39,462 nt of DNA from Chloroflexota bacterium (GTDB taxonomy: Bacteria; Chloroflexota; Dehalococcoidia; Lucifugimonadales; UBA3495). The number at the start of each line of letters is the position of its first letter. The first letter of the stretch is position 1. A program made the translations under genes and the position numbers. This document shows, piece by piece, positions 6,312 through 35,984 of the stretch. Where the stretch lies: assembly GCA_022566155.1 (NCBI GenBank), contig JADFJS010000001.1:1-39462 (forward strand). The letters are read 5' to 3'. The notes below the pieces were generated by a model. That model saw only the letters and a list, made by a program, of their open reading frames with translations, searched no databases and had not been told where the DNA came from.

Positions 6312-6339
6312 TTCTTGATTACACCATTAATGTTCCCGC

Positions 6340-6622
6340 CTTGAAGGGGAGTACTAAGAGTACACTGTCTCAGAGAGTCGGCGATCGGTGAAAGTCCGGC
6401 GGCAGTAAGGCTCCCAACTCGCCCCCGAGCGGCCCGCCTGAACAACGGAGCAATATCCGAAGTAGGGTGGGACGGTTGACCCCGTTAAAAGTCTCCGAGC
6501 TGTTCCGGTATCACAGCTAATCCGCGATCAGGCGTCACCTGAAAGCTGAAAGCCTTGTGCCGGAAAAGAAGGGTGGTACCGCGGGCCTGATAGACCCGTC
6601 CCTTCATGGGATGGGTTTTTTT
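6340..6622 (+). promoter_or_regulatory. T-box riboswitch leader, apparent Leu (CUC) specifier
   Basis: Stem I elements are present: AGUA (6350..6353), AG bulge AGAGA (6372..6376), distal loop GGUGAAAG (6387..6394). The specifier loop 3' side reads CAA-CUC-G followed by CCCC, which pairs with GGGG 6346..6349. F-box CCGTTA is at 6482..6487, the T-box motif GGGTGGTACCGCG at 6571..6583, and a terminator follows. Confidence 0.85.
6595..6622 (+). terminator. intrinsic terminator of the T-box leader (attenuator)
   Basis: CCCGTCCC / GGGATGGG 8-bp stem (one G-U pair), loop TTCAT, then TTTTTTT. The 5' arm can alternatively pair within the T-box antiterminator. Confidence 0.8.
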
Positions 6623-6683
6623 ATTTGTCAAATTCCCCTTGAACCCGCTGGGAAAGTGGGCACGCAAAGGACTAGGAGAACCG

Positions 6684-8378
6684 ATGGAACTGAGCGGCGC
6701 GGAAATCGTCTGTGAAAGCCTTCTGAAGGAAGGCGTAGAGGTTATCTTCGGGTTACCGGGGGGAGCGGTACTGCCGCTATACGGGGCCCTATCCAAGTAT
6801 CCCAAGCTGCGCCACATACTGGTGCGCCACGAACAGGCCGCAGTCATGGCCGCCGACGGCTATGCCAGGGCAACCGGACGGGTGGGCGTCTGCTCCGCCA
6901 CTTCCGGACCCGGAGCCACCAACCTGGTCACCGGCATCGCCAGCGCCCAGATGGACTCCATACCCATAGTGGCCATCACCGGCCAGGTGCCCCGCGCCGC
7001 CATCGGAAAAGATTCCTTCCAGGAGACCGACGTAACCGGCATAACCCTGCCCATCACCAAGCACAACTACCTGGTCATGGACGTCAGTGAAGTGGCTCCC
7101 GTGATAAAGGAAGCTTTTTACGTCGCGCGTACCGGACGTCCCGGCCCGGTCCTGGTGGATATTCCCAAAGATATTTTGTTGGATGAGCGGACGGAATTCA
7201 TCTGGCCCGAAAATGTAAGCCTGGCCGGCTACAACCCCCCGCGGGAAGCGCCGGCGGAGCAGGTGGCTCAGGCAGTCAAACTGATAAACGAGGCGGAGCG
7301 CCCCATCATTCTGGCCGGGCACGGGACGTTGATCTCCCACGCCTACGATGAAGTCAGGGAGCTTGCGGAAAAGGCCCAGATCCCGGTCGTCACCACCCTT
7401 CTGGGGATCAGCTCCTTTCCAACCGACCACTACCTGAACTTGGGGATGCCGGGAATGCACGGCATGGCGTACGCCAGCCTGGCCATCGACAAAGCGGACC
7501 TGCTGATCGCCCTCGGCATGCGGTTCGACGACCGGGTAACCGGACGCCTTCGGGACTTCGCGCCCAATGCCAAGGTGATTCACATCGATATCGACCCGTC
7601 GGAGCTCAACAAGAACGTCAAGGCCACGGTCCCTTTGCTGGGCGACCTCAAAATGGTATTGGGCCAGTTGGTCCCCCAGGTTGAGGCCAACGTCCATATG
7701 GACTGGCTGCACTATATCGATGCCCTGCGCGTGGACCATCCATCCACGGTCATCCGGGAAACCGATGAGCTGCTGCCCCAATTCGTGCTCCGGGAGCTGA
7801 CCAAGGCGACGCAGGGCGAGGCCATCATAGTCACCGGGGTAGGGCAGCACCAGATGTGGGCCGCCCAGTACTGCGCTTTTCTGGAACCGAACACCCTGAT
7901 CACCTCAGGGGGCTTGGGCTCCATGGGATTCGAAGTGCCGGCTGCGCTGGGCGCCAAAGTCGGCCGGCCCGACAAGACGGTCTGGTCCATCGCCGGGGAT
8001 GGTGGATTTCAGATGACCATGTGTGATCTGGCCACCGCGGTGGAGAATAACATCAACGTCAAGTTCGCCATCATGAACAACGGGGTCCTGGGCATGGTGC
8101 ACCAATGGCAGGACTTATTCTATGAGAAGGACTATTTCTCCACGGTCTACACGCGCAACCCGGACTTCGTGAAGCTGGCCGAGGCCTATGGCATCGCGGG
8201 CATCCGGGTCAAAGAGAAGGGGGAAGTCGCCGAGGCCATTCAGCAGGCCATGGAGATCCCGGGCCCGGTGGTCATCGACTTTGTGGTCAAAGCCGATGAA
8301 AACGTCTTCCCTATGATCCCCGCGGGGGAATCGGTGCACGAGATGTTGGAAGAGCCCACGCCGGAACGGACGGCATAG
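6684..8378 (+). CDS. ilvB: acetolactate synthase (AHAS) large subunit, biosynthetic type
   Basis: ThDP-enzyme motifs ATSGPGATNL, GGLGSMGFEVPAALGA and IAGDGGFQMT. I chose ATG 6684 (AGGAG at 6674..6678) rather than the track start 6606, which lies inside the leader terminator. Confidence 0.93.
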   Translation: MELSGAEIVCESLLKEGVEVIFGLPGGAVLPLYGALSKYPKLRHILVRHEQAAVMAADGYARATGRVGVCSATSGPGATNLVTGIASAQMDSIPIVAITGQVPRAAIGKDSFQETDVTGITLPITKHNYLVMDVSEVAPVIKEAFYVARTGRPGPVLVDIPKDILLDERTEFIWPENVSLAGYNPPREAPAEQVAQAVKLINEAERPIILAGHGTLISHAYDEVRELAEKAQIPVVTTLLGISSFPTDHYLNLGMPGMHGMAYASLAIDKADLLIALGMRFDDRVTGRLRDFAPNAKVIHIDIDPSELNKNVKATVPLLGDLKMVLGQLVPQVEANVHMDWLHYIDALRVDHPSTVIRETDELLPQFVLRELTKATQGEAIIVTGVGQHQMWAAQYCAFLEPNTLITSGGLGSMGFEVPAALGAKVGRPDKTVWSIAGDGGFQMTMCDLATAVENNINVKFAIMNNGVLGMVHQWQDLFYEKDYFSTVYTRNPDFVKLAEAYGIAGIRVKEKGEVAEAIQQAMEIPGPVVIDFVVKADENVFPMIPAGESVHEMLEEPTPERTA

Positions 8379-12195: not shown

Positions 12196-12441
12196 ATGGC
12201 AGAGCAGGGCCCAACTCCAAACAGTCCAAGTAGCTACATAACTCTAGAGGGCGCCGCCTGGTTGGGTAGGATCCTAGGGTTGGTCATAGTTGGGATCGCT
12301 TTAGCGGTCAGTAGCAAAGCTGCCGCCCTCGCGGTCCAAGACGAGGTTTGGGTGTTCCTCAGCACGCTGGTGACGCCGATGGCTCTTGGATTCCTCATCC
12401 TGATTGGCGCAGAATCCATGAGCAGATTAGGCCGCCGATAA
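12196..12441 (+). CDS. small hypothetical membrane protein (two predicted TM helices)
   Basis: ATG 12196 is preceded by GAAGGAG (12182..12188). The product is MAEQGPTPNSPSSYITLEGAAWLGRILGLVIVGIALAV...LVTPMALGFLILIGAE. The overlapping 247-aa reverse ORF is an Arg/Gly/Pro-rich shadow frame. Confidence 0.5.
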   Translation: MAEQGPTPNSPSSYITLEGAAWLGRILGLVIVGIALAVSSKAAALAVQDEVWVFLSTLVTPMALGFLILIGAESMSRLGRR

Positions 12442-13483: not shown

Positions 13484-13787
13484 AATACCCTAAGCATCGG
13501 CGCGTTTGTAGTCGTTGGTAATGGGGCGGCGTACCTGGACGTCAGGTACAAATCCTGGGGGCTCTACCTCCGGTCCGCGCCTGGTTGTCATTTCGGCCCA
13601 GTATAACATGGGGGATTTTGACCCCACCAGGGCTTTACCAACACCGGCTGGCTCCTCGTATGGTGCGCCAGCGCCCCGCCAAAGCGCCAGACAATCGTAT
13701 CGCGCGCCCAGGTAAGGTATAATCCTATGAGGGTTTTGAGACGATAAGAAAACCGTCCCCTAATACTTAAAAAGGAAAGGAATGTAC

Positions 13788-14252
13788 ATGCCCGCACAAA
13801 TTGGAGATACCGCCCCAGATTTCACACTTCCCTCGGTTAGTGAGGGAGACATATCTCTCAGCCAGTACCGAGGCGAGAAAAACGTGATCCTGTCTTTCCA
13901 CGTTTTTGATTTCACCTCTGGTTGAACCACACAGGCTACCTCGTTCCGGCAGCACTACAGCCGGTTCGAGGAGAAGAATGCCCAGGTGCTGGGCATAAGT
14001 TGCGACACCGTACCCGCCCACCGGGCCTGGACTACCGCGCTGGGTGGTCTACCCTATCCAGAGCTGTCCGACTTCCACCCCAGGGGGAAAGCGAGCCAGG
14101 CTTACGGCCTTTACAACGAGGACCGGGGCGCGAGTAACCGAGCCGTGATCATCGTGGACAAAGAGGGAATCATCCGATTCCGTGAAACCTACGAACCCGG
14201 CGTTCTGCCGGACCCGGCCATGATTCTGGCTGAGGTGGAAAAGCTGGGATAG
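13788..14252 (+). CDS. peroxiredoxin (AhpC/TSA, Bcp/PrxQ-like) with in-frame TGA at the peroxidatic Cys position; probable selenoprotein
   Basis: The same frame as track ORF 13986..14252, extended upstream, reads MPAQIGDTAPDFTLPSVSEGDISLSQYRGEKNVILSFHVFDFTSG-TGA(13923..13925)-TTQATSFRQHYSRFEEKNAQVLGISCDTVPAHRAW... The TGA replaces Cys in the DFTxxCxT(E/Q) motif. A purine-rich SD-like AAAGGAAAGGA precedes the ATG, and ATG 13782 is an in-frame alternative start. Confidence 0.75.
13939..13971 (+). other. candidate bacterial SECIS hairpin
   Basis: CCTCG-TT-CCGGC [AGCACTACA] GCCGG-TT-CGAGG: two perfect 5-bp helices split by a symmetric TT/TT internal loop, with G as the second loop nucleotide. 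The stem begins 13 nt after the TGA and the apical loop 25 nt after it. Confidence 0.55.
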
Positions 14253-14295: not shown

Positions 14296-14342
14296 AAACC
14301 AAAGGCCCAGCGCCGATATAATCGGCGCTGGGCCTTTGGTTT
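14296..14342. terminator. bidirectional intrinsic terminator between convergent genes
   Basis: Perfect 22-bp stem AAACCAAAGGCCCAGCGCCGAT / ATCGGCGCTGGGCCTTTGGTTT with a 3-nt loop. T-rich tails follow on both strands. It sits between the peroxiredoxin stop (14252) and the Gre-fusion stop (14379). Confidence 0.75.
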
Positions 14343-14378: not shown

Positions 14379-15191
14379 TTAGCCGGCTATCTTCTGCACC
14401 ACATATTGCACGGTGCCACGCGGCACATTTACAGTCACCTCATCGCCCACCGCACGGTCCAATAGGGCCTGGCCCACCGGTGATTGTGTAGAGATCTTTC
14501 CTGAAGCCGCGTCGGCTTCACGTACATCCACCAGTTTGTAAACCAGCTCCTTTCCGGAACTCACATCTTTCAAGGTGACGCTGGTGCCAAGGGCCGTCCT
14601 GAGGCGCACGATTTTCGAATCCGGCCCCAGTATCTGCACGGTGGACAGGCTGGATTCCAACTCCCTGATTCTGGCTTCGATGATCCCTTGGTGCTCTTTG
14701 GCGGCCTCCAGGGGGGCATTTTCGCGGAAATCCTTGTCCGCCATCGCGAGGCGGATATCGTCTACCACGGTTACCCGTTCAACTTTGAGACCCTCTAGCT
14801 GAAGGACGAGCCGGTCGTATCCTTCCTGGCTCAGAAGAGTGCCTGCGGAGGCTGCAGACCCAGAGCCTCGCCGCCCGGCGGCGCGCCGGGTGCGGGGAAC
14901 CCGCAGGTGAGAGGCGAGGCCTGTCTGTACCCAACCTTCATCTTTCAAGAAACCCAAAAATGCCTTGACGGGAGTAAGCTTTTGGACTGATTCGGAACCT
15001 CGCTGGCCGATGTACTGGGCATAGTCTGCAACCTCGGATGGAGATAGATCGCACACGTTCCGGTCGCGTCCACACCAGGTAACAAATCTGCCCAGTTCCT
15101 GCTGACCCTCCGCTGCCTTGGCGCGGCCCTTTTTTGTGGAAATGAAACGAATCAAGGCTTCAGACAGGGAGGGACCAGTGTAGGTGACCAA
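14379..15191 (-). CDS. GreA/GreB-family transcript cleavage factor with an N-terminal integrase-type SAM-like (core-binding) domain
   Basis: The C-terminal ~150 aa carry the Gre coiled-coil tip DKDFRENAPLEAAKEHQGIIEARIRELE and the globular domain GKISTQSPVGQALLDRAVGDEVTVNVP. The N-terminal ~110 aa (LSEALIRFIS...LSPSEVADYAQYI...KLTPVKAFLGFLKDEGWVQTGLASHLRVPR) follow the phage-integrase N-terminal SAM-like pattern. The linker is Arg/Gly/Ser-rich. TTG start with GGAGG 9 nt upstream. Confidence 0.8.
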   Translation of the reverse strand: MVTYTGPSLSEALIRFISTKKGRAKAAEGQQELGRFVTWCGRDRNVCDLSPSEVADYAQYIGQRGSESVQKLTPVKAFLGFLKDEGWVQTGLASHLRVPRTRRAAGRRGSGSAASAGTLLSQEGYDRLVLQLEGLKVERVTVVDDIRLAMADKDFRENAPLEAAKEHQGIIEARIRELESSLSTVQILGPDSKIVRLRTALGTSVTLKDVSSGKELVYKLVDVREADAASGKISTQSPVGQALLDRAVGDEVTVNVPRGTVQYVVQKIAG

Positions 15192-25784: not shown

Positions 25785-26195
25785 TTACCAGATGACGTCC
25801 ACTACCTTGCTGCGTTGCAGCACCTCATCCTTGCTGATAACCGGGGCCTGGCGCACCATAGCCTCCGCCGCGATCAACCGGTCGTGCATCTCAGTTACGC
25901 CGGTTATGCCTTCCATGGCCTCCAACTGGTCCTGTCCCAGCGCGGAGAATTCGAACTCACGACTGGCGTTGATCCTCGAGATGAGATCGGAAGGCAGCAT
26001 CGGCAGCCCTGCCTTGGCCGTGAGGTAAAAAAGTTCCGCCACAACTATAGCGGGCACAACGATCAACGCACCACCGGCGGCCGCCAGGCGGAAAACTGCG
26101 TCCGCCGCGAGACTCAACCGATCGGGGTTCTCAAGGTACCAGAACAGGGCATGGGTGTCGGCAACGTATGTGGGCAATTCAGGATTGCGGATCAT
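25785..26195 (-). CDS. PIN-domain ribonuclease toxin (VapC-like)
   Basis: PIN acidic residues in YVADTHALFWY, VVAELFY and MHDRLIAAEA. 136 aa. Overlaps the upstream antitoxin gene by 17 nt. Confidence 0.85.
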   Translation of the reverse strand: MIRNPELPTYVADTHALFWYLENPDRLSLAADAVFRLAAAGGALIVVPAIVVAELFYLTAKAGLPMLPSDLISRINASREFEFSALGQDQLEAMEGITGVTEMHDRLIAAEAMVRQAPVISKDEVLQRSKVVDVIW

Positions 26196-26595
26196 CCTTC
26201 GGTCCCCATATTCCTTTGGCTTCCAAGAAATCCTCGTCGCTTAGCTCGTGGAGGTTCGCCCAAGCGTTGCGCATGTTTATCCGCTCCTCCCACGGGACTT
26301 CTTCCTTCTGTCCTCGCAGCGAGACCAGTTTCGCGCTGGGCTTGCCGTATCGGGTAATAACAAATTCCAAGCCAGGGTTCTCCTCAAGCAGCTTGAGGAT
26401 CTCACTGGGATTGGCTTTCAGCTCCCGCACGCCCACGCCGTCCCGCACCATGCCTTCTATCTTCCGTTGCATTTGACTTGATCCCTTTCCTTCAGTACTG
26501 GCATTCTCCGCGCAAAGATCGCAGAGCTTCCACCCATGCTTGTAGACTGGCGATTCGAACTCCCGTCCACAGTCATCGCAGTGGTATTTTAACAC
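26179..26595 (-). CDS. Phd/YefM-type antitoxin with N-terminal zinc-ribbon extension
   Basis: The core GVRELKANPSEILKLLEENPGLEFVITRYGKPSAKLVSL is Phd/YefM-like. The N-terminal 27 aa hold CDDC...x16...CDLC. GTG 26595 has GGAGG 4 nt upstream, which supports the long form. Confidence 0.75.
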   Translation of the reverse strand: MLKYHCDDCGREFESPVYKHGWKLCDLCAENASTEGKGSSQMQRKIEGMVRDGVGVRELKANPSEILKLLEENPGLEFVITRYGKPSAKLVSLRGQKEEVPWEERINMRNAWANLHELSDEDFLEAKGIWGPKDDPQS

Positions 26596-26724
26596 TGATC
26601 CTCCAAAGCGGCCATATTCTCAATAGCTTTGTGCTCTTATCTTGCATTTAAATAGTATCATTCCCGTCCACAAAATACCACTTCTATTCTATATTTTATG
26701 GCTATTTACACTTTGATATGCTGA

Positions 26725-32410: not shown

Positions 32411-32544
32411 TAAGACCCTCCACTCATCATAGTAACATTATACCTTGGGTCCGCTCCCGATAGGCCGGCTTCCGGTTGAAGGCCAATCTATTCGCTTTCA
32501 TTGTCAATGTTTAGTACTCCCGGCGTTCGTTGAAATCACGCTAT

Positions 32545-33741
32545 ATGGGCTGGGCTGAAGATATCGATTTGCCCGCCATCTTCCAGGCGATTTCCTCAAA
32601 CCGGGAAGCGCTGGAGGTGGTCGAACAGCTCAATGAGACAATTAGCTTCGGCAACTCAGCCTTATCACGGATGCAGGAGGAAGCCATCGCGACCGTGGTG
32701 GCCGTTGCCAACCGGTGCACCTACGGCGCTCTAACTCACGGAGGGTTCTTCCGCCGGCATTCCGGTGACGGGAAACTGGCCAGCCATCTTCTAGACGACT
32801 ACTCAGTCGCCGACCTGGACCCACGGGATCTCCTGATGCTGGATTTCGCCGTACGCTTAACCCGGGAACCCGGTTCCCTCACCACCTCGGACTTGGAAGG
32901 GCTGCGGCGAGCCGGCTTTGACCAAAAAGCAATCGTTTCCATCGTACTCATTACCTGCTTGTCTAATTTCATGAACCGTCTTGCCACCAGTTTTGGGGTG
33001 GAGGTGCCGCCCAGTTACCGTAAAGTGGTGAAGTCTTGGCTTAGCGGTCCCGCCGCACAAGAGAGCTGGCTGCTCCCGCCGGATGAGTTCCAGCCCGACG
33101 CGGCCTCCGCCCGCAAGTTGGGGATAGATATTCCCCGCAGCTGGCAAAAACCTGCCGGGCCGAGCCAGCCCCGTCAGCGCCAACAGGACGCGGAGCAGGA
33201 ACCATCAAGCGGCCAGCAAGATCCTGCCGGGCAGGGCCGGCCTCAACAGCGCCAACAGGACGCGGAGCAGGAACCACCGCGCGGCCAGCAATCAGGTACG
33301 CAAGGGAGCCCGCGCGGTGGAGAACAACAAGACCGTGGAGATTCTGACTACAGCACAGACAAACTTGAAACCGGAGAAGGTCTCTCAGCAATGGACCAAC
33401 CAGACATTCAGCAGGGTCCCTCCGGCGGCGGTTGGCAAGACCTGGAGACGGATGTTTTCCAATTCGTGCAAGAGAGCGACGAAGAATTGGACAACCAGGG
33501 CCCTCAGGAACCACTGCCAAGCCTAGATCGATTCATTTCCGACTGCTGTAATGTGGCGTCCGGTGAGTCAACCACGGCCCGCGACCTGTACATCAGCTAT
33601 CTAAGGTGGAGCGACGACAACGGGGAACACGCCCTGTTACAGCGTAACTTCGGCATTCAGCTAGCCCAGTTGGGATTCAGACGCCGCCGGCGCAGCGGTG
33701 GCCGCCACTGGTGGCAGGGCATCAGCCTGCAGGGCCAGTAA
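32545..33741 (+). CDS. AhpD/CMD-like (peroxidase-related) domain fused via a Q/P-rich linker to a P4/D5-primase C-terminal-type domain
   Basis: The N-terminal ~160 aa contain EEAIATVVAVANRCTYGALTHG (the CMD-family CxxC position reads C-T-Y-G). The linker is PAGPSQPRQRQQDAEQEP... The C-terminal LDRFISDCCNVASGESTTARDLYISYLRWSDDNGEHALLQRNFGIQLAQLGFRRRRRSGGRHWWQGISL matches the C-terminal tail of P4-family primases. Start is uncertain (ATG 32545 or TTG 32530), with no clear SD. Confidence 0.7.
   Translation: MGWAEDIDLPAIFQAISSNREALEVVEQLNETISFGNSALSRMQEEAIATVVAVANRCTYGALTHGGFFRRHSGDGKLASHLLDDYSVADLDPRDLLMLDFAVRLTREPGSLTTSDLEGLRRAGFDQKAIVSIVLITCLSNFMNRLATSFGVEVPPSYRKVVKSWLSGPAAQESWLLPPDEFQPDAASARKLGIDIPRSWQKPAGPSQPRQRQQDAEQEPSSGQQDPAGQGRPQQRQQDAEQEPPRGQQSGTQGSPRGGEQQDRGDSDYSTDKLETGEGLSAMDQPDIQQGPSGGGWQDLETDVFQFVQESDEELDNQGPQEPLPSLDRFISDCCNVASGESTTARDLYISYLRWSDDNGEHALLQRNFGIQLAQLGFRRRRRSGGRHWWQGISLQGQ
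33151..33294 (+). repeat. 72-bp x 2 in-frame tandem duplication inside the linker
   Basis: Units 33151..33222 and 33223..33294 share CCTGCCGGGC at their 5' ends and an identical 30-mer CAGCGCCAACAGGACGCGGAGCAGGAACCA (33175..33204 and 33247..33276), followed by GCGGCCAGCAA. Confidence 0.85.
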
Positions 33742-33868: not shown

Positions 33869-33884
33869 TTTTAGTACTAAAGGC

Positions 33885-34151
33885 TATGATGGAGACGAGT
33901 AGCTAAGGGTAGGCACCAAGCGAGCCTGGTCTGGTGGAAGCAGGTGTGCCGAGCTTAAGTGAAAATCCCTCCGGAGCCGCCAGCTGAACCCTACCCCTTG
34001 AGGGCAGGTAAGCCGGGCCGGGGTCGTCGCCCGTTAACAACGACGGGGCATGTTGGTGTCCTGATAGAGTGGTCCGCCTGAGGCGGACAAATAGGGTGGT
34101 ACCGCGGGAACGTAAAAATCCCGTCCCTATGGGGGACGGGATTTATTTTTT
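33885..34151 (+). promoter_or_regulatory. T-box riboswitch leader, apparent Ile (AUC) specifier
   Basis: GGAG (33891..33894) pairs with CUCC (33969..33972). AGUA is at 33898..33901, the AG bulge AGCGA at 33919..33923, and the distal loop GGUGGAAG at 33933..33940. The specifier loop 3' side reads GAAA-AUC-C. F-box CCGTTA is at 34031..34036, the T-box motif GGGTGGTACCGCG at 34094..34106, and a terminator follows. Confidence 0.85.
34116..34151 (+). terminator. intrinsic terminator of the second T-box leader
   Basis: Perfect 12-bp stem AAATCCCGTCCC / GGGACGGGATTT, loop TATGG, followed by ATTTTTT. Confidence 0.85.
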
Positions 34152-34292: not shown

Positions 34293-35984
34293 TTGAAACT
34301 GAAGGGTGCGGAAATCATGTGCGAGAGTCTGCTCCGCCAGGGAGTGGACGTGATGTTCGGGTATCCCGGGGGGGCCATCCTACCATTTTATGACGCCCTC
34401 TGGAGCTATCCCCAGCTACGGCATATCCTGGTGCGCCACGAGCAGGCGGCGGCTCATGCCGCCGACGGTTATGCCCGCGTCACCGGCCGGCCGGGCGTGT
34501 GCGTGGCTACCTCCGGACCAGGGGCGACCAACCTGATCACCGGAATCATGGGCGCCAAAGCCGATTCGGTGCCAATGGTGGCCATCACGGGACAGGTGGC
34601 GCGCACAGCCATGGGCACCGAGGCGTTTCAGGAGTGCGATATCTGTTCCATCGCCGCTCCCTGCACCAAGAGGACATACCTGGTTATGTCGGCGGCGGAC
34701 CTGGCGCCCACCATCCAAGAAGCCTTCCAGGTCGCCCTTGAGGGGCGCCCGGGACCGGTGCTGATCGACGTACCCCGGGATGTTCAGTTGGAAGAGGTAG
34801 AAGCAGTCTTCCCTGAGCTCGAGGAGATAACCGTCCCTACTCCCACGGCCGAGGTCCTGGAGCGGGTGCAGCAGGCCGCCCGATTGATCAACGAAGCCGA
34901 GCGGCCCGTCATCATCAGCGGACACGGCATCATGGCCTCCGGGGCCTCGGAACCCCTGTTGGCCCTGGCCGAGACAACCGGCATCCCTGTTATCACCACG
35001 CTCTTGGGTCTTGGGGGGTTTCCCGGAAATCATCCCCTGAGCCTGGGCATGCTGGGTATGCACGGCATGTATTGGGCCAACCTGGCAGTGCATCAGGCCG
35101 ACTTGATCATAGGCTTGGGTATGCGCTTCGACGACCGGGTCACCGGTAAGGCATCCACCTTTGCGCCCCACGCCCGGATCATACACCTGGACATAGAGGC
35201 GACTCAGGTGGGACGCAACGTGCCGGTGGAAGTGCCCCTGGTAGGCGATGCCAAGACGCTGCTGGAGGCCCTTGTGCCCCTGGTAAGGCATGCGCACCGG
35301 CCCCAATGGATCGGCTACATCGACCAGCTAAAACGGGACCATCCGTCCCTGGCCATCCCTCCTTCCGACATCCTCCAGACACAGCACGTCATGACCAGCC
35401 TGAATGAATTGATACAAGAAAATCCAGAGAGCGTGGTGGTAACTGGAGTGGGCCTGCATCAGATGTGGGCCGCCCAGTTCCTGTCCTTCAATCGCCCCAA
35501 CTGCTTTGTCTCTTCGGGCGGGCTTGGAGCCATGGGTTTCGAGCTGCCCGCGGCCTTAGGGGCGCAGGCAGGCCGTCCTGATGCCACGGTGTGGACCATC
35601 GCCGGCGACGGCGGCTTCCAGATGACCCTGCAAGAGTTGGCAACCGTTACCGAGTCCAAGCTGCCGGTGAAGATTGCCCTGTTCAACAATGGTTACTTGG
35701 GCATGGTCCGGCAGTGGCAGGAGCTGTTCTTCGATAACCACCTGAAAGATGTTCCCATACCCGGTCCCAATTACGTGGATCTGGCCGGCTCTTTCGGGGT
35801 ACCCGCTATGCGGGTGACTGACCGGGAGGAGGTGTTGCCCGCGCTGCGCCGGGCCCAGGCCCACGACGGTCCATTCCTTATCGAGTTCGTGGTCGACCCC
35901 AACACCAACCTCTACCCCATGGTGCCGCCCGGCGGTTCCCTGGCCGACACCATGGAAGACCCGCTGATTAAAAACGGGGGCTGA
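34293..35984 (+). CDS. acetolactate synthase (AHAS) large-subunit paralog, no adjacent small subunit
   Basis: Collinear with ilvB at 6684 and shares identical runs LRHILVRHEQAA, ATSGPGATNL, GRPGPVL, HQMWAAQ and IAGDGGFQMT. TTG start with GGAGG 5 nt upstream. ATG 34317 is the alternative start. Confidence 0.9.
   Translation: MKLKGAEIMCESLLRQGVDVMFGYPGGAILPFYDALWSYPQLRHILVRHEQAAAHAADGYARVTGRPGVCVATSGPGATNLITGIMGAKADSVPMVAITGQVARTAMGTEAFQECDICSIAAPCTKRTYLVMSAADLAPTIQEAFQVALEGRPGPVLIDVPRDVQLEEVEAVFPELEEITVPTPTAEVLERVQQAARLINEAERPVIISGHGIMASGASEPLLALAETTGIPVITTLLGLGGFPGNHPLSLGMLGMHGMYWANLAVHQADLIIGLGMRFDDRVTGKASTFAPHARIIHLDIEATQVGRNVPVEVPLVGDAKTLLEALVPLVRHAHRPQWIGYIDQLKRDHPSLAIPPSDILQTQHVMTSLNELIQENPESVVVTGVGLHQMWAAQFLSFNRPNCFVSSGGLGAMGFELPAALGAQAGRPDATVWTIAGDGGFQMTLQELATVTESKLPVKIALFNNGYLGMVRQWQELFFDNHLKDVPIPGPNYVDLAGSFGVPAMRVTDREEVLPALRRAQAHDGPFLIEFVVDPNTNLYPMVPPGGSLADTMEDPLIKNGG

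Follow-up and report, generated by a model that had tools for sequence, protein, structure and literature searches.

We identified, in a 39,462-nucleotide stretch of DNA from a Chloroflexota bacterium (contig JADFJS010000001.1; the whole stretch is referred to below as the window), a gene that very probably encodes a selenocysteine (Sec)-containing peroxiredoxin of the AhpE-like branch, as judged by comparing its sequence with those of its relatives. Sec would be encoded by an in-frame TGA at the peroxidatic position of the gene, here called prx, and a hairpin lying directly 3′ of this codon is under selection at the RNA level, beyond coding constraint.

The prx reading frame and its TGA

On the forward strand, ATG 13788 to TAG 14252 forms a single 154-codon frame for an AhpC/TSA peroxiredoxin, the sole internal stop being TGA 13923–13925 in the protein context FHVFDFTSG-TGA-TTQATSFRQ. 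A first-pass annotation of this DNA had proposed a full AhpC/TSA frame with this lone TGA, and coordinates and translation agree with it. When the TGA was read as Cys, the translation matched Pfam AhpC-TSA (PF00578) over protein residues 5–131 and profile positions 1–123 of 124 (E = 3.2e-36), scoring 124.4 bits against a curated cutoff of 26; this end-to-end match means that the gene has neither a frameshift nor a missing part. The features of the gene and its borders are as follows.

13788..14252 (stop TAG 14250–14252), forward strand: AhpE-like peroxiredoxin coding sequence with predicted Sec at residue 46 (translation, Pfam, orthologues)
13923..13925, forward strand: in-frame UGA at the peroxidatic position, predicted U46 (Cys alignment, 80/80 orthologues, independent assemblies)
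13774..13781, forward strand: SD-like purine-rich stretch GGAAAGGA, 6 nt 5′ of ATG 13788 (read from the sequence; putative function)
14296..14342, no strand assigned: 22-bp perfect hairpin, then UUUGGUUUG, between the convergent prx (+) and greA-like (−) genes (RNA fold, −43.9 kcal/mol)

M-P/S-A forms the N-terminus in all 80 orthologues analysed, which, together with the presence of GGAAAGGA 6 nt before it, favours ATG 13788 as the start over the in-frame ATG 13782. A sigma-70 promoter scan upstream of prx returned nothing; a TATAAT string is visible at 13718–13723, for which no promoter is claimed. Beyond the stop codon, the hairpin at 14296..14342 is probably a bidirectional intrinsic terminator; a consensus terminator scan did not list it.

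The convergent neighbour (14379–15191, reverse strand) encodes a protein of 270 aa that has a GreA/GreB domain and is extended at length at its N-terminus, a typical GreA being about 158 aa. Its synteny with prx holds in the relatives examined (L083, L084, L086 and others). On the other side of prx, an 81-aa ORF (~12196–12441, forward strand) lies between leuA and a gene for a metallo-beta-lactamase-fold protein; it has no Pfam match, and the gene calls of several independent assemblies of this species (L090, L091, L092 and L094) include it.

The table-11 ORF list holds, in the frame of prx, only 13782..13925 (47 aa) and 13986..14252 (88 aa, with a GTG start), and public gene calls likewise divide the gene into pieces of 45–47 aa and 88 aa, the mis-calling as a fragment that the first-pass annotation had foreseen. 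About three-quarters of the best 120 database clusters are C-terminal stubs of 87–105 aa, beginning at whichever usable start codon comes first after the TGA, and one such stub carries the NCBI name ‘redoxin domain-containing protein’. We consider it very improbable that these pieces reflect termination at UGA followed by a restart, for example at GTG 13986, to give two polypeptides and possibly a split enzyme. Such a restart would lose the residues from the TGA to GTG 13986 (TTQATSFRQHYSRFEEKNAQ, helix alpha2), which are conserved in frame, the downstream ‘starts’ vary among orthologues (hence fragments of 87–105 aa) and the active site would be left without a peroxidatic residue; what speaks for two products is that the 88-codon ORF with its GTG start exists and that database gene calls begin at various codons after the TGA.

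Full-length database homologues have either C or W at the TGA column. The entries with W at this catalytic position (P0001, P0002, P0004–P0007, P0010, P0015, P0030 and P0036) are mistranslations of TGA as Trp, as observed for P0001 (93% identical), the DNA of which has TGA and, under code 11, does not yield the protein as deposited. Gene callers for metagenomes plausibly picked a TGA=Trp model on short contigs. The stubs and the spurious Trp entries together constitute a systematic annotation artefact in public data for this group of peroxiredoxins.

Relatives were gathered by scanning one genome per bacterial and archaeal species, which gave 515 loci; the genome of the window itself was not among the scanned representatives, and the best match was at 85%. 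The best 80 of the 515 loci, which were those analysed, all come from Dehalococcoidia, SAR202 or Chloroflexota MAGs and share 71–85% amino acid identity with prx. TGA was present at the same codon in all 80, with no other stop and no frameshift in any of them. Pairwise, the orthologous genes are 66–99% identical at the nucleotide level (median 73%), and the third codon position accounts for 67% of the differences upstream of the TGA and 60% of those downstream; that the differences fall mainly on third positions indicates that both halves of the gene are translated in frame and are under purifying selection.

That standard callers return only fragments would be expected of a pseudogene, or of a fragment decaying after a nonsense mutation, but this origin is extremely improbable for prx: the same TGA is found with no other lesion in 80/80 orthologues at nucleotide identities down to 66%, purifying selection is strong on both sides of it, and the catalytic residues are invariant. 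Changes within the species are synonymous only, as in an NCBI MAG of the same species, in which all three substitutions relative to the window gene are synonymous, and the divergence of the orthologues excludes a single clonal contaminant sequence. Additional disruptive mutations in relatives, named by the first-pass annotation as the sign of a true pseudogene, were found in none of the 80.

Independent assemblies of the species of the window (GCA_022567075.1, whose contig JADFHQ010000071.1 is at 99.1% identity to the window, together with ENA and Logan contigs; 97–99.4% identical over 6–11 kb) all retain both the TGA and the hairpin. The chance that a TGC or TGT was misread or misassembled as TGA is close to nil, as the TGA recurs in at least eight independent contigs of the species, obtained from different samples and with different assemblers, and in 80 further species, even though one near-identical pair of loci, L059 and L084, does differ by TGA versus TGC. 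TGA also terminates 10 of the 26 other confident genes in the window; the organism is therefore on the standard code, and an alternative code with TGA as Trp was rejected on this ground.

The hairpin downstream of the TGA

The structure that follows the TGA lies wholly within the coding sequence and consists of the following elements.

13939..13971, forward strand: SECIS-like two-helix hairpin within the coding sequence (fold, covariation, synonymous recoding)
13939–13943 with 13967–13971, forward strand: lower stem, CCUCG/CGAGG (window fold)
13946–13950 with 13960–13964, forward strand: upper stem, CCGGC/GCCGG (window fold)
13951–13959, forward strand: apical 9-nt loop AGCACUACA, with G in second position (window fold)

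The two-helix hairpin had been described in the first-pass annotation and was present where that annotation placed it, starting 13 nt after the UGA, its apical loop 25 nt after it. It folds with a minimum free energy of −21 kcal/mol (z = −2.4 against dinucleotide shuffles), and a UU/UU internal loop between the two stems is fixed by two Phe codons. In a recoding test, in which each peptide was re-encoded by sampling synonymous codons according to their local usage, the hairpin of the window had z = −5.0 against recodings of the same peptide, and 0 of 200 recodings were as stable. All 71 distinct orthologue segments also folded more stably than their own recodings (mean z of −2.6, with 76% below −2), compared with mean z values of −0.5 to +0.1 for four control segments of the same genes.

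Across the 71 distinct orthologues, standard pairs filled 81.5% of the structure cells, compared with 16–53% in controls slid by 1–3 columns. Two-sided changes were seen in 26 cells, against 8.9 ± 2.2 in shuffles, and the covariation score lay above those of all 500 shuffles. Some of the compensatory changes are nonsynonymous: CCGGC...GCCGG is replaced by CCGGUC...GACCGG (Gln to Ser, with Ser/Gly to Asp), by CCGCC...GGCGG and by the register-shifted form CCGGC...GCCGGA (Ser-Arg to Ala-Gly). The hairpin is thus kept in the TGA-containing orthologues, as the first-pass annotation would have it, with codon-level selection for structure.

Its position is also held, the apical loop starting 22–30 nt after the UGA in 70 of the 71 orthologues. 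Bacterial SECIS elements commonly have a guanosine in the apical loop (PMC1088965), and the G noted at the second loop position by the first-pass annotation is there in the window; it is not conserved, G occupying one of the first two loop positions in 27/71 orthologues and any loop position in 32/71. No single consensus structure emerged from RNAalifold on the 63-nt alignment without gaps; folding each sequence separately showed the stems to sit in different registers in different clades, which accounts for this. A search of Rfam with the hairpin found no family at gathering or permissive thresholds. The more distant Cys homologue at L085 is without a comparable hairpin.

Elsewhere in the window, two T-box leaders (6332–6606 and 33877–34131) score 97.6 and 110.9 bits, both above the Rfam gathering threshold, and each lies upstream of one of two paralogous genes for the acetolactate synthase large subunit (6606–8378 and 34293–35984).

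Active site and proposed selenocysteine insertion

In a comparison with the PDB, the closest solved relative of the product was Mycobacterium tuberculosis AhpE (Rv2238c; 1XXU, 1XVW and 5C04), with E = 2e-34 and residues 4–144 aligned. AhpE chains matched at E values of 2e-34 to 3e-32, followed by Prx1-type chains at 2e-21 and Bcp chains at ~1e-13. In the alignment to AhpE, the TGA corresponds to Cys45, T43 to Thr42 and R118 to the Arg of ‘ANRGTFVVD’. Protein database homologues P0003, P0011, P0012, P0014, P0026 and P0043 have Cys at the TGA-aligned column, and TGC was confirmed in the DNA of two of these, L084 (P0003) and L085 (P0012). The placing of the TGA at the peroxidatic Cys by the first-pass annotation is borne out by AhpE and by these Cys homologues alike. 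The annotation had looked to Bcp/PrxQ for such homologues; that Cys aligns with the TGA was right, but the kin are of AhpE type (~1e-34, against ~1e-13 for Bcp), and the scores for the Bcp model NF006960 (52.6 against a cutoff of 140) and the PrxQ model NF053650 (45.4 against 260) both fall below threshold. Residues of the active site were followed through the 72 orthologues with predicted Sec at codon 46.

13914..13916, forward strand: Thr43 codon, the T of the TxxU motif (T43-S-G-U46) (invariant in 72/72; equivalent to AhpE Thr42)
14139..14141, forward strand: Arg118 codon, the conserved peroxiredoxin active-site Arg (invariant in 72/72; AhpE Arg alignment)
14001..14003, forward strand: Cys72 codon, the only Cys of the protein and candidate resolving residue (invariant in 72/72; putative resolving role)

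Cys72 is the only Cys in 71 of the 72 orthologues, and its equivalent in AhpE is Val. The Pro of the PxxxTxxC/U motif is absent: position T-4 is Val39 in 72/72 (H-V-F-D-F-T-S-G-U), where AhpE has Pro38. H38-V39 is invariant (codon 39 = 13902–13904), and Val stands in place of Pro in Sec and close Cys forms alike, the motif Pro being kept in AhpE and in the more distant homologues P0080 and P0099.

The near-identical pair mentioned above consists of a Cys form with TGC (L084:10001–10462; ENA ERZ23496604) and a predicted Sec form with TGA (L059:10001–10459; SAR202 MAG OSU_TB47), which are 97.8% identical in nucleotide sequence and have the same synteny. From L059 to L084, three codons at the active site change: D (GAC) becomes A (GCC), U (TGA) becomes C (TGC) and T (ACC) becomes S (TCC). 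These are three of the few differences between the two, and the hairpin is intact in the Cys form. The pair points to what would be a Sec/Cys switch of very recent date, possibly accompanied by co-adaptation.

In the mechanism that we propose, the ribosome would reach UGA 13923–13925 and the hairpin 13 nt downstream would act as a bacterial SECIS element, recruiting SelB with Sec-tRNA(Sec) so that Sec is inserted and termination does not occur. We infer this SelB-dependent insertion from the mechanism known in bacteria, taken together with the comparative evidence. The U46 selenolate of the 154-residue product would then reduce peroxides, with Thr43 and Arg118 likely to position and activate U46. 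The resulting selenenic acid would most plausibly be resolved by Cys72 to form a selenenylsulfide or, alternatively, by an external thiol reductase.

The clade may go further than this and represent a ‘Sec/Cys atypical 2-Cys’ offshoot of AhpE with a mechanism of its own, combining Val for Pro, an intramolecular selenenylsulfide with Cys72 and a lineage-specific SelB, although we regard this as doubtful. In such an offshoot, the SECIS hairpins, mostly without a loop G, may be recognised by the lineage-specific SelB via different determinants; if so, L059/L084 (D41A, T46S) would be a natural experiment on the changes that accompany a Sec-to-Cys swap.

ARAGORN detected no tRNA-Sec, and no tRNA at all, in the window and 60 orthologous loci; the absence of tRNAs from L001–L060 (~1.1 Mb) is notable and is probably due to all of these loci being one syntenic neighbourhood. 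A tblastn search with E. coli SelA, SelB and SelD gave no match at 1e-3 in the window and 80 loci (~1.6 Mb), a result that says little, as the flanks are syntenic 20-kb loci making up <1% of each genome. Among related organisms, the cultured Dehalococcoidia species Dehalogenimonas alkenigignens carries genes for Sec synthesis together with selC and a Sec-specific elongation factor (PMC4918011), and BSepDB, which covers species with the Sec pathway, places two Dehalococcoidia MAGs (49 and 46 selenoprotein genes) among the ten bacteria richest in selenoproteins (PMC13326102).

The UGA might instead be read through without Sec, by a near-cognate tRNA (Trp, Cys, Arg or Gly) or with Cys carried on tRNA(Sec), the hairpin serving as a generic stimulator. 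Such read-through would be compatible with the failure to find sel genes in the window and orthologous flanks, with the lack of conservation of the loop G expected of a SECIS element and with the W at the UGA position of several database entries. We nevertheless judge it improbable: those W entries translate TGA, not TGG; the peroxidatic residue must be Cys or Sec, and homologues have Cys; TGA is a normal stop in the window; Prx TxxU is an established selenoprotein family (PMC2398784); and both Sec use and richness in selenoproteins are documented for the lineage (PMC13326102, PMC4918011). Insertion of Sec at residue 46 is the reading that we favour.

We also looked for other genes of this kind. 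A scan of the unannotated gaps in the window for further TGA-read-through ORFs gave nothing convincing. An all-versus-all search of TAA/TAG-delimited frames from all loci, in which TGA was aligned to TGA or Cys after off-frame shadows of conserved genes had been removed, left only prx. One candidate in the window, 26179–26673 (reverse strand), was rejected as an ordinary Phd/YefM-like antitoxin joined to spurious upstream sequence.

The antitoxin ORF (~26179–26500, reverse strand) precedes a PIN-domain (VapC-like) gene at 25785–26195 (reverse strand), and the two are probably a toxin–antitoxin pair. At 32530–33741 (forward strand), the window also encodes a 403-aa protein with a Gln/Pro/Glu-rich, low-complexity middle that contains the near-repeat QPRQRQQDAEQEP... 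/ RPQQRQQDAEQEPP....

Relation to known systems

The prx gene marks the organism as a predicted Sec user and corrects an annotation error. With TGA present in all of the best 80 Dehalococcoidia/SAR202 representatives, this lineage, which is abundant in the ocean, appears to have a selenium-dependent peroxidase at the core of its antioxidant functions, and this would bear on marine selenium demand; the selenoprotein richness of the lineage has already been described. A search of the accessible literature found no paper specifically on an AhpE-type Sec peroxiredoxin or on SAR202 selenoproteins, and general selenoprotein catalogues probably already include this type of gene.

PrxU of Eubacterium acidaminophilum is reportedly an experimentally established Sec peroxiredoxin, the work of Sohling et al. 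in 2001, in which Sec replaces the peroxidatic Cys. The first-pass annotation had cited it as a precedent, which holds for the chemistry but not for orthology: PrxU belongs to another Prx subfamily, and its 233-position NCBIfam model (NF040737) gave prx 75.4 bits, below the curated equivalog cutoff of 270.

AhpE is closer. It is similar in length (about 153 aa), and its Thr, peroxidatic position and Arg align with those of prx, but it has Cys45, the canonical Pro and a Val at the site of Cys72, and its sequence identity to the product of the window gene is moderate. AhpE is a 1-Cys peroxiredoxin that is reduced via mycoredoxin/mycothiol, and to our knowledge mycoredoxin/mycothiol is not known in Chloroflexota.

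With the SECIS element of the E. coli fdhF type, the hairpin shares its location in the coding sequence directly 3′ of the UGA, a loop within the distance range of SECIS models and, in the window, a G near the 5′ side of the loop. It differs in that the loop sequence is not conserved in prx, the G is absent from most orthologues and UU/UU interrupts the stem.

The gene is an additional member of the ‘Prx, pfam00578, TxxU’ family, an established and abundant marine selenoprotein family (PMC1088965, PMC2398784) with 253 sequences in GOS (PMC2398784) and an entry in a 2026 review (PMC13188914); both the enzyme class and the recoding mechanism have already been described. The proteins reported by Zhang and Gladyshev (Sargasso Sea 2005, GOS 2008) have in common with prx the AhpC/TSA domain, T-x-x-U, a hairpin directly 3′ of the UGA, a marine bacterial origin and many Cys homologues. 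Compared with the Prx TxxU motif, prx has Val39 for Pro, and many of its orthologues are without the loop G. Those surveys did not resolve Prx subfamilies and hosts, whereas the gene in the window belongs to an AhpE-like clade of Dehalococcoidia/SAR202.
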